This document shows positions 1,420-60,618 of a stretch of 64,000 bases of DNA, one piece after another. A program made the translations under genes and the position numbers. The notes under the pieces are model-generated. The model was not told where the DNA came from and searched no databases. It saw only the letters and a program-made list of their open reading frames with translations. The stretch is from assembly GCF_965641715.1 (NCBI RefSeq), contig NZ_OZ282453.1; one strand, given 5' to 3'. Position 1 is the stretch's first letter. Each line of letters starts with the position of its first letter. Source of the DNA: Escherichia coli (GTDB lineage: Bacteria; Pseudomonadota; Gammaproteobacteria; Enterobacterales; Enterobacteriaceae).

Positions 1420-2844
1420 TTACTGCATTAACAGGTAGATGGTGCTGTCGCCGCGCTGAATGTTCAGTGCCAGCACAGACGGTTTGCTGTCGAGAACTTT
1501 ACGCAGTTCAGCGATGTTTTTCACTGCCTGCTGGTTCGCGCCAATAATCACATCACCTTTCTTCAGGCCGATCTGCGCAGCCGGAGTGCCCGTTTTCACG
1601 TTGTTCACTACCACGCCCTGATCTTTGCCTTTGTTGCTCATCTCAGCACCTTCAATGCCGTTGAAGATGGAGCTGGAATCAACCTGATTCTGGCTGCTCT
1701 GCTGCAGTTCCAGATTCACGTTGACCTGCTTACCGTCGCGCAGCAAGCCCAGGGTCAGTTTGCTGCCCACCGGCATAGTACCCACCTGAGCACGCAGTGC
1801 GGCAAAGCTGCTGATCGGCTTACCGTTCAGTGAGGTGATCACATCACCCGCTTTAATGCCCGCTTTTGCAGCGGAGGAGTTAGGCAGAACCTGGCTTACG
1901 AAAGCACCGCGCTGGGCGTCAACTTTCATCGCTTTCGCCAGTTCGGAGTTCAGCTCAGTCCCCATAATACCCAGCTCACCGCGTTTCACCTGGCCGTATT
2001 CCACCATCTGCGAGGTCAGGTTTTTCACCATGTTGCTCGGGATAGCAAAACCGATACCGATGTTGCCGCCGTCCGGTGCGAGGATCGCGGTGTTGATACC
2101 GATCAGTTCGCCGTTCAGGTTAACCAGCGCACCACCGGAGTTACCACGGTTGATCGCTGCATCGGTCTGGATGAAGTTTTCGTAGTTTTCGGCATTCAGG
2201 CCGCTACGCCCCAGCGCAGAGACAATCCCGGAAGTTACCGTCTCGCCCAAACCAAACGGGTTACCAATCGCTACGGTGTAATCACCCACGCGCAGTGCAT
2301 CAGAATCCGCCATCTTAATTGCGGTCAAGTTTTTCGGGTTCTGGATTTGGATCAGCGCGATATCAGAGCGCGGATCTTTGCCAACCATCTTCGCGTCGAA
2401 CTTACGGCCATCGCTCAGTTGAACTTTAATGACCGTCGCGTTATCAACAACGTGGTTGTTGGTGACGACATAGCCTTTATCGGCATCAATGATGACGCCG
2501 GAACCCAGCGCCATGAATTTCTGTTGCTGGCCGCCACCATTACCGCCCTGGCCACCCTGGCAGAACGGAGAGCTCTGGAACGGAGAACCTTCCTGGCAGA
2601 ACGGAGAATCATCACCGAAGAACTGCTGGAAATTACGCGGCATACGCGGCGTATTAACGGTTGTGCTACCTTCTACGTTAATGCTGACCACTGAAGGCAT
2701 CACCTTTTCGAGCATCGGTGCAAGGCTTGGCATCTGCTGGGCTGTCGTTGCTGAAGAAGTCTCAGCCGCCGTTGCAGAGAGCGGAGATAACGCCAAACCT
2801 AAACTCAGAGCCAGTGCACTCAGTGCTAATGTGGTTTTTTTCAT
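1420..2844 (-). CDS. degP: Periplasmic serine endoprotease DegP (HtrA)
   Basis: 474 aa; signal peptide MKKTTLALSALALSLGLALSPLSATA, trypsin-like core, two PDZ-like C-terminal regions. Confidence 0.95.
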   Translation of the reverse strand: MKKTTLALSALALSLGLALSPLSATAAETSSATTAQQMPSLAPMLEKVMPSVVSINVEGSTTVNTPRMPRNFQQFFGDDSPFCQEGSPFQSSPFCQGGQGGNGGGQQQKFMALGSGVIIDADKGYVVTNNHVVDNATVIKVQLSDGRKFDAKMVGKDPRSDIALIQIQNPKNLTAIKMADSDALRVGDYTVAIGNPFGLGETVTSGIVSALGRSGLNAENYENFIQTDAAINRGNSGGALVNLNGELIGINTAILAPDGGNIGIGFAIPSNMVKNLTSQMVEYGQVKRGELGIMGTELNSELAKAMKVDAQRGAFVSQVLPNSSAAKAGIKAGDVITSLNGKPISSFAALRAQVGTMPVGSKLTLGLLRDGKQVNVNLELQQSSQNQVDSSSIFNGIEGAEMSNKGKDQGVVVNNVKTGTPAAQIGLKKGDVIIGANQQAVKNIAELRKVLDSKPSVLALNIQRGDSTIYLLMQ

Positions 2845-2889
2845 GTATTTCAGTCTCGATTAACAGATAACGCAAAATTGCTGTGTTCT

Positions 2890-22089: not shown

Positions 22090-22266
22090 TAAAGTAAGTA
22101 ACTGGTTAATTTACATTCTGGTCGCGTGCGCAAATACGCTTTTCCTCACACAGTTGTCAAGTGTTACGTTTAGATAATTGCTATCCGGAAAAGCATCTGC
22201 TATTTATAGCGGCCTCATTTTTCCCCCGAACATGGGGATCGATAGTGCGTGTTAAGGAGAAGCAAC

Positions 22267-22722
22267 ATGCAAGAAGGGCAAAACCGTAAAACATCGTCCC
22301 TGAGTATTCTCGCCATCGCTGGGGTGGAACCATATCAGGAGAAGCCGGGCGAAGAGTATATGAATGAAGCCCAGCTGGCGCACTTCCGTCGTATTCTGGA
22401 AGCATGGCGTAATCAACTCAGGGATGAAGTCGATCGCACCGTTACACATATGCAGGATGAAGCAGCCAACTTCCCGGACCCGGTAGACCGTGCAGCCCAG
22501 GAAGAAGAGTTCAGCCTCGAACTGCGTAACCGCGATCGCGAGCGTAAGCTGATCAAAAAGATCGAGAAGACGCTGAAAAAAGTGGAAGACGAAGATTTCG
22601 GCTACTGTGAATCCTGCGGTGTTGAAATTGGTATTCGCCGTCTGGAAGCGCGCCCGACAGCCGATCTGTGCATCGACTGCAAAACGCTGGCTGAAATTCG
22701 CGAAAAACAGATGGCTGGCTAA
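22267..22722 (+). CDS. dksA: RNA polymerase-binding transcription factor DksA
   Basis: 151 aa from [19 protein letters not shown]; C4 zinc finger [25 protein letters not shown]. Confidence 0.95.
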
Positions 22723-22750
22723 TTACAGCCGTTCCATCACGTTTACCACA

Positions 22751-22779
22751 GGCGGGAAATGCTCCCGCCTTATTTTTTG
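22751..22779 (+). terminator. dksA intrinsic terminator (ggcgggaaatgctcccgcc + T-run); the gluQ start codon lies inside the hairpin
   Basis: hairpin and tattttttg read directly; ATG of the next ORF at 22759. Confidence 0.7.
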
Positions 22780-23685
22780 TTCAAAGAGATGACAGACACA
22801 CACTATATTGGCCGCTTCGCCCCCTCTCCTTCCGGCGAGCTTCATTTTGGTTCTCTGATTGCTGCGCTTGGCAGCTATTTGCAGGCTCGCGCCCGGCAAG
22901 GTCGCTGGCTGGTACGCATAGAAGATATCGACCCGCCTCGTGAAGTTCCCGGTGCCGCAGAAACTATCCTGCGCCAGCTGGAACATTACGGCCTGCACTG
23001 GGACGGCGATGTTCTCTGGCAATCGCAACGTCACCACGCCTATCGCGAAGCACTCGCCTGGTTACATGAGCAAGGACTAAGTTATTACTGCACCTGCACG
23101 CGTGCACGTATTCAAAGCATTGGCGGTATTTACGACGGCCATTGCCGGGAATTGCATCATGGACCAGGCAACGCCGCAGTGCGTATCCGCCAGCAGCATC
23201 CGGTCACCCAGTTTACTGACCTGCTGCGCGGCATTATTCACGCCGACGAAAAACTGGCACGGGAAGATTTTATTATTCATCGCCGTGATGGTTTGTTTGC
23301 CTATAACCTGGCGGTGGTGGTCGATGATCACTTCCAGGGCGTGAGCGAAATTGTCCGCGGGGCAGATTTGATCGAACCGACAGTGCGGCAAATCTCGCTG
23401 TACCAGCTTTTTGGCTGGAAAGTGCCAGATTACATTCATCTGCCGCTGGCGCTTAATCCACAAGGCGCTAAACTTTCCAAGCAGAATCATGCGCCTGCGT
23501 TGCCGAAAGGCGATCCACGCCCGGTACTAATCGCGGCACTTCAATTTCTGGGGCAGCAGGCAGAAGCACACTGGCAGGATTTCAGCGTCGAGCAAATCCT
23601 TCAGTCAGCCGTCAAAAACTGGCGGCTTACCGCAGTGCCTGAGTCGGCAATTGTAAATTCAACATTCTCAAATGCGTCATGCTGA
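22759..23685 (+). CDS. gluQ: Glutamyl-Q tRNA(Asp) synthetase
   Basis: 308 aa; class I aaRS HIGR-like motif ([19 protein letters not shown]) and KLSK motif. Confidence 0.9.
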
Positions 23686-60458: not shown

Positions 60459-60618
60459 GGGTTATTCCTTATCTATCTAATAACGTTGAGTTTTCTGGAA
60501 CCTGTCCCATTGAACTCTCGCCGGAAAGCTCAATAAGACAGGTTCTACGTTTAGTTGCCGCGCTTTTATATGCGCTTGATTTACAACATCTTCTGGATAA
60601 TTTTTACCAGAAAAATCA

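Follow-up and report, generated by a model that had tools for sequence, protein, structure and literature searches.

Does the start codon of gluQ lie within the transcription terminator of the preceding gene, dksA? And does the expression of gluQ depend on read-through of this terminator, or on a translation-initiation site that is masked by RNA structure? These questions arise at the dksA-gluQ junction of E. coli because an in-frame ATG is located in the loop of a terminator hairpin. The junction was analyzed within a 64,000-nt stretch of E. coli DNA (the window), whose numbering is used throughout. Very probably, a leaky Rho-independent dksA terminator gates gluQ, translation begins at AUG 22789, and the hairpin loop contains its AUG by accident and without use.

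The genes sfsA, dksA, gluQ, and pcnB follow each other in this order, all on the plus strand. The identities of DksA and GluQ-RS are unambiguous from family models and PDB. DksA is a full-length equivalog match to NCBIfam NF008045 (residues 1-151 of 151; 346.4 bits, cutoff 289), and its reading frame ends with the TAA at 22720-22722. The gluQ product matches three GluQ-RS equivalog models, namely NF004312 (620.7 bits, cutoff 453), NF004314 (400.8 bits, cutoff 256), and TIGR03838 (377.6 bits, cutoff 276.7), as well as PDB entries 1NZJ and 4A91 (E = 1.8e-202, chain residues 1-298). The HxGS signature is present in its translation as ELHFGS, and its 298 residues align solely with the N-terminal ~250-300 residues of the 468-490-aa GluRS chains. 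In other words, the protein consists of the GluRS catalytic domain without the anticodon-binding domain. The coordinates of the features at the junction are listed in the table.

Table. Features of the dksA-gluQ junction, in window coordinates, with the basis on which each was assigned.
Feature	Coordinates	Strand	Basis and remarks
dksA CDS, 151 aa	22267..22722	+	RefSeq annotation transferred; strong Shine-Dalgarno AAGGAG upstream
dksA 3' UTR spacer, stop codon to hairpin, 27 nt	22723..22749	+	sequence
Terminator hairpin, AGGCGGGA-AAUGC-UCCCGCCU	22750..22770	+	folding, terminator scan, conserved core
Loop ATG, pseudo-start of the obsolete 308-aa gluQ annotation, unused as initiator	22759..22761	+	ORF list, Edman, N-terminomics
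U-rich tract, UAUUUUUU	22771..22778	+	sequence; K-12 Term-seq 3' end = U22774
gluQ leader, GUUCAAAGAG, without Shine-Dalgarno	22779..22788	+	no Shine-Dalgarno (SD) core; anti-SD duplex +1.5 kcal/mol; A22785C inside
gluQ (gluQRS/yadB) CDS, 298 aa, tRNA glutamyl-Q(34) synthetase	22789..23685	+	RefSeq, PDB, NCBIfam; true start ATG 22789-22791

Several features that lie away from the junction were also recorded. Downstream, RefSeq starts pcnB at the ATT codon 23745-23747, which is preceded by GAGGTG, and the mechanical list of open reading frames starts it at TTG 23724. We take this ATT to be the known inefficient, non-canonical start of pcnB. Upstream, a terminator-like site at 22197-22221 (CTGCTATTTATAGCGG followed by CCTCATTTTT) lies 48 nt before the dksA ATG. 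This site coincides with a 3' end at MG1655 160652(-), equivalent to window 22219, that is classed as "orphan" in the excerpted Term-seq tables of Adams et al. 2021. The site may serve as the terminator of sfsA, or may block transcripts that enter the dksA promoter region from upstream promoters. Elsewhere in the window, Rfam matches above the gathering threshold are the tp2 sRNA (60461-60574, plus strand), the HtrA (degP) 5' UTR thermometer (2839-2884, minus strand), and the ES036/CssrF sRNA (44179-44221, plus strand). Lastly, an RNA-seq screen (mBio 2017, PMC5371410) reported an RNase III-dependent site inside gluQ that speeds the decay of the message. The site, at MG1655 159578 (~window 23293), is far from the hairpin and unconfirmed in vitro, and was set aside as irrelevant to the terminator.

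The stem of the hairpin, AGGCGGGA paired with UCCCGCCU, consists of 8 pairs, 6 of them G-C, that run from A22750 to U22770 and enclose the loop AAUGC at 22758-22762. Folded in isolation the hairpin has a free energy of -15.1 kcal/mol (z = -4.3), a stability that was not reached in 200 dinucleotide shuffles. It was the top terminator-like site in a 2-kb scan. The hairpin remained unchanged in both the MFE and centroid structures of its 181-nt context (22620-22800), and folding of the same segment gave no competing anti-terminator structure. A second hairpin, in which the U-tract pairs with AAGAGAUG over the true AUG, was also predicted by RNAfold and was rejected as not significant (-3.9 kcal/mol, z = -1.3, matched by 21 of 200 shuffles). 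Rfam returned no family match at the dksA-gluQ locus. The bases that follow the stem read TT-A-TTTTTT at 22770-22778, a tract whose longest run is T6 and which is interrupted (UUAUUUUUU). The initial annotation of the locus was therefore right to describe a dksA terminator hairpin and wrong to place a T7 behind it. Likewise, it located the ATG in the loop or 3' arm; the codon lies wholly within the loop, at loop positions 2-4, and it opens an ORF of 308 codons. The hairpin is separated from the dksA stop codon by a 27-nt spacer, and a ribosome halted at that stop would leave the hairpin uncovered.

Does this hairpin end transcripts in the cell? Evidence comes from the K-12 Term-seq data of Adams et al. 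2021, as far as excerpts of its tables present them. A 3' end is recorded at MG1655 160097(-), 15 nt after the annotated ATG, and the printed 61-nt context together with this 15-nt distance maps it to U22774 of the window. In LB at OD 0.4 this end received 3.1 million reads, among the highest values in the excerpts, and it was present in at least two growth conditions. Its intrinsic-terminator score was 7.47 (threshold 3.0), and the bicyclomycin data gave a Rho score of 1.16 with the call "No". The 3' end falls merely 4-5 nt beyond the stem, and some 3' trimming of the transcript is likely. Coverage in the 800-nt windows tabulated on either side was 250 upstream and 62 downstream. This fall of ~75% suggests read-through of ~25%, a value that is confounded by RNA stability. 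Thus, the Term-seq check that the initial annotation had called for gives a very strong Rho-independent 3' end at 22774, with coverage dropping from 250 to 62. Because the excerpted tables were built on the 308-aa model of gluQ, the dksA terminator end is tagged there as "internal" to gluQ.

The element also behaves as a conserved structure. The comparative set was made of 80 loci retrieved with DksA, one genome per species, of which the 76 carrying the GRFAPSPSG motif were used; dksA-gluQ synteny was found in ~75 of the 80. The six pairs of the GGCGGG/CCCGCC core (12 positions) were invariant in 25 aligned enterobacterial sequences, and the loops and flanks varied. Compensatory change was seen at the seventh and outer pairs, both bases having changed in 5 pairs. 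In the stem alignment 82.5% of the cells were paired, compared to 48-55% when the partner strand was slid; this covariation test is only modestly informative, since the six core pairs never vary. Vibrio, Photobacterium, and Shewanella have hairpins of unrelated sequence with T-tracts at the same position. The T-tract is poor in many relatives, for example TTGCCGTTTC and CTGTTATCTC. With a GC-rich stem-loop, an adjoining U-rich tract, 3' ends in vivo, Rho independence, and a conserved structure, the dksA-gluQ element is a leaky intrinsic (Rho-independent) terminator of dksA, one that has already been characterized.

This earlier characterization was carried out by Caballero et al. 2012 (BMC Microbiol 12:226, PMC3542578) in Shigella flexneri. 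They found that dksA and gluQ-rs are co-transcribed. A fusion that lacked the dksA promoters had baseline activity, indicating that gluQ has no independent promoter under the conditions tested. Removal of the intergenic region raised lacZ activity ~10-fold, and mutations that disrupt the stem raised it more than 2-fold; lacZ fusions with stem mutations were a check that the initial annotation had proposed. The stem mutants rose just above 2-fold against 10-fold for the deletion in the observations of these authors, so the U-tract or RNA stability also contributes. Both the promoter and the mutation experiments were done with plasmids in S. flexneri and not in the source strain of the window. 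Since gluQ lacks its own promoter in the conditions tested and loss of the terminator raises downstream expression, gluQ is made from dksA transcripts that read through. Its dependence on read-through is accordingly upheld by published experiments, that is, by co-transcription, the lack of a separate promoter, the 10-fold and >2-fold rises of lacZ, and the K-12 Term-seq data.

Two other accounts of gluQ expression need to be weighed against a simple leak. One is that gluQ is transcribed from a promoter of its own, such as the sigma-E site predicted in RegulonDB, and that the terminator is irrelevant to its expression. A sigma-24 prediction in RegulonDB is indeed cited by Caballero et al. 2012, and a sigma-70-like sequence, TTCAAA-18-TATATT, is present at 22780-22809. 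However, the promoterless dksA-to-gluQ fusion was at baseline, and a scan of 22100-22800 with a loose sigma-E consensus returned no match where ~1 per 700 nt was expected. A transcript from the sigma-70-like sequence would begin downstream of ATG 22789, and it therefore cannot encode GluQ-RS. The three promoter-like matches in the region are no enrichment over the 1.6 +/- 1.2 found in shuffled sequences. A separate promoter is thus highly improbable. The other account is that the terminator is a regulated attenuator, and that either a trans-acting factor or an alternative RNA fold adjusts its read-through to growth phase or to stress. It draws on RT-PCR in S. flexneri, in which the intergenic product rose ~20-fold in stationary phase and the dksA and gluQ amplicons 1.3-fold. 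Caballero et al. 2012 wrote that a riboswitch-like circuit or a terminator-binding protein could not be excluded, and the invariance of the 12 core stem positions across 25 genera, while loop and flanks drift, would fit a sequence read by a factor. However, the RT-PCR was semi-quantitative end-point densitometry, and an invariant GC core is equally expected from simple purifying selection on a short stem. As to an alternative RNA structure, neither an Rfam aptamer nor a competing fold was found at the locus, the terminator persisting in the MFE and centroid structures of the 181-nt segment, and Caballero et al. 2012 likewise found no riboswitch. Regulated attenuation is therefore unlikely. A more specific form of it is that read-through increases in stationary phase or osmotic stress, via a factor that reads the invariant GGCGGG/CCCGCC stem or via the action of DksA/ppGpp on RNA polymerase. 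The basis of this proposal is one semi-quantitative RT-PCR (20-fold) and the invariance of the stem core, and we regard it as distinctly unlikely. A constitutive leak through the terminator remains the preferred reading of how gluQ is transcribed.

Where, then, does translation of gluQ begin? A second in-frame ATG occurs at 22789, about 30 bases past the loop ATG and 11 nt past the U-tract. In each of the six E. coli records that were examined, RefSeq gives gluQRS a length of 298 aa and a start equivalent to 22789, and the 298-residue chains of 1NZJ and 4A91 correspond to residues 11-308 of the long ORF. Direct evidence came from Edman degradation of the product of S. flexneri gluQ-rs expressed with its native upstream region, which gave TDTQYIGRFAP (Caballero et al. 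2012); the protein was overexpressed from T7 and the predominant band alone was sequenced. Further evidence comes from N-terminomics of E. coli K-12 (TRAINSPOTTER; NAR 2026, PMC13245402), which identified the gluQ peptide MTDTQYIGR and an alternative start at 160082. This start is labeled "N-terminal truncation (10aa)" relative to UniProt P27305, whose database start is 160112. The TRAINSPOTTER table for K-12 has no row for the database start of gluQ, and Ribo-RET support is not listed in its gluQ row. Family models align to the long ORF from residue 11 (NF004314), residue 16 (TIGR03838), or residue 5 (NF004312). Altogether six lines of evidence give 22789 and none gives 22759. The initiator of gluQ is ATG 22789, which is outside the hairpin, and the loop ATG is an artefact of old annotation.

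The behavior of NF004312 is a separate point. This model, which has 306 positions, aligns to the protein encoded by 22759-23682 from residue 5 of the 308-aa form, which suggests that the sequences behind the model were over-extended and took in the translated terminator.

Comparison across relatives bears on the same question. Of the 76 gammaproteobacterial loci, 64 have an in-frame ATG that precedes the Arg codon of GRFAPSPSG by 18-30 nt, at a spacing of 24 nt in 38 loci, 27 nt in 17, and 21 nt in 7. An ATG inside the hairpin was found in 2 of 27 non-redundant enterobacterial GGCGGG..CCCGCC loci, those of E. coli and E. albertii. Where Escherichia has GGCGGGAA-ATG-CTCCCGCC, the majority of relatives carry GGCGGGAG-NNN-CTCCCGCC. 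These alignments suggest that the loop ATG is recently derived, and it appears confined to Escherichia in the sampled loci. The distance from the hairpin to the gluQ start falls in all three phases modulo 3 (13, 9, and 5 of the 27 loci), and in several loci in-frame stop codons separate the hairpin from the start. The apparently conserved "LPPY" of the long protein is merely what CTCCCGCCTTAT, from the 3' arm and T-tract, gives on translation; in loci with another phase the same bases give "GGSLSRL". The hairpin is thus conserved as RNA and not as codons, out of a fixed frame with gluQ. These comparative points are new but minor.

Variation within the species was also recorded. Among 5426 complete E. 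coli genomes, 5424 had a match to the 301 nt around the hairpin, and the match to strain 2013C-4991 was 100% identical. The 60 nt at 22740-22799 are identical in K-12 and in 4887 of the 5424 genomes. Three genomes were sampled from the 537 that are non-identical over these 60 nt, and in all three the sole difference was A22785C, which sits between the U-tract and the true ATG and changes Lys to Asn in the obsolete extension. One genome labeled E. coli (NZ_OZ547176.1, isolate AF16) has 90.5% identity over the 301 nt, compared to at least 95% for the 5423 others; it is probably a cryptic Escherichia lineage. The loop of its hairpin is AAUUAC and contains no ATG.

Two alternatives to initiation at 22789 alone were considered. 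It could be that the loop AUG is the genuine initiator of a 308-aa GluQ-RS and that initiation is masked by the hairpin, which is what the initial annotation had put forward. The loop ATG is in frame with an ORF open from it, and it shows no variation among the sampled E. coli and in E. albertii. Both UniProt P27305 and the older annotation of K-12 start with it, and the alignment of NF004312 to the long form begins at residue 5. There is also an SD-like AGGCGGG that ends 3 nt upstream of the loop ATG, noted by Caballero et al. 2012 as well. However, these same bases are the 5' arm and are buried in a stem of -15 kcal/mol. The loop codon is not the one used for initiation: Edman degradation and N-terminomics give the second Met only, RefSeq and PDB start there too, and the other GluQRS models begin at residue 11-16. 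Neither the codon nor the frame is kept in orthologues, since the loop ATG is missing in 25 of 27 hairpin loci, including that of the divergent "E. coli" AF16, the phases modulo 3 are mixed (13/9/5), and "LPPY" is accounted for by the 3' arm and T-tract. A masked start at 22759 is largely refuted, and extremely unlikely to be real; the actual initiator is not masked, as it lies 11 nt past the U-tract. The initial annotation had inherited the over-long 308-aa model (UniProt P27305, database start 160112). It had also described the arrangement as reported for E. coli. The publication concerns S. flexneri 2457T, and it demonstrated explicitly that initiation does not occur at the loop AUG.

A milder possibility is dual initiation, in which most GluQ-RS is made from 22789 and transient opening of the hairpin lets the loop AUG yield a minor 308-aa proteoform. 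Edman degradation covered the predominant band, the frame is open and has the SD-like sequence, and E. coli has become fixed for the loop ATG, the 60 nt being identical in 4887 of 5424 genomes, all of which would accommodate such a proteoform. Speaking against it are the strength of the hairpin, the K-12 N-terminomics without a database-start row, the lack of conservation of the loop ATG beyond Escherichia, and the common A22785C change, which replaces Lys with Asn in the putative extension. Dual initiation is accordingly very unlikely, and we retain initiation at 22789 with an unused loop AUG.

The true start is itself unusual. It lacks a Shine-Dalgarno sequence (GUUCAAAGAG-AUG), as was remarked by Caballero et al. 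2012. An SD core was found in the 20 nt before 2 of 64 gluQ starts, compared to 74 of 74 dksA starts, and the median anti-SD duplex in the same loci was +0.6 kcal/mol for gluQ and -7.4 kcal/mol for dksA. The SD-less gluQ start is thus conserved across Enterobacterales, which is a further new but minor observation, and this conserved absence suggests selection for weak translation of GluQ-RS. The SD-less start at 22789 would limit translation and so keep GluQ-RS far below DksA.

Putting these points together, the following model can be proposed. Transcripts from the dksA promoters form the 8-bp GC-rich hairpin 27 nt past the dksA stop codon, and the majority of them would end in the U-tract, at around 22774. 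A minority of RNA polymerases would pass the terminator and produce a bicistronic dksA-gluQ mRNA, on which GluQ-RS is made from AUG 22789. The leaky terminator and the weak, SD-less start would together hold the abundance of GluQ-RS far below that of DksA. The loop AUG would be a lineage-specific accident of Escherichia/Shigella, in frame by chance and mis-annotated as the start of a 308-aa protein.

What does this mean for the locus? The dksA-gluQ terminator is ordinary and already known; the dependence of gluQ on read-through is established, and the headline claim about its start codon is unsupported. The main value of the analysis is a correction. The 308-aa model survives in UniProt P27305, in older records of K-12, and, it seems, in the seed of NF004312. 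Under this model, what is simply an intergenic terminator resembles a start codon buried in RNA structure, and Term-seq pipelines mislabel the 3' end at the dksA terminator as "internal" to gluQ. The leaky terminator and the SD-less start would tie the glutamyl-queuosine modification of tRNA-Asp to the transcription of dksA. If the terminator were a conditional gate that responds to DksA/ppGpp, this tRNA modification would be coupled to the stringent response.

The locus can be compared with several known systems. On the proteomics side, gluQ is the same case as the over-extended N-terminal annotations that were fixed by N-terminomics (TRAINSPOTTER, PMC13245402), with no difference. With the canonical intrinsic terminators of E. 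coli, the dksA element shares an 8-bp GC-rich stem, a 5-nt loop, a U-rich tail, a position shortly after a stop codon, a 3' end inside the U-tract, and insensitivity to bicyclomycin. It differs from them in that its U-tract is interrupted (UUAUUUUUU), and in that termination is incomplete by design, the downstream gene relying on the leak. The S. flexneri dksA-gluQ-rs terminator of Caballero et al. 2012 is the same element, with the same gene order, the loop AUG, a second in-frame AUG (27 nt on, as published), and a common dependence on the dksA promoters and on read-through. The differences from the window are confined to the host strain and to His or Gln at residue 5 of GluQ-RS (MTDTH vs MTDTQ). 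Terminators inside operons that set the ratios of gene products are also known from rpsU-dnaG-rpoD, where one precedes dnaG, and from recA-recX, where read-through is ~10% (both cited by Caballero et al. 2012). These involve other genes and sequences, and the likeness is one of analogy and not homology. As at dksA-gluQ, a terminator is placed between co-transcribed genes and the distal gene is expressed at a much lower level than the proximal one. Like gluQ, dnaG also has an unusual ribosome-binding site (Caballero et al. 2012).
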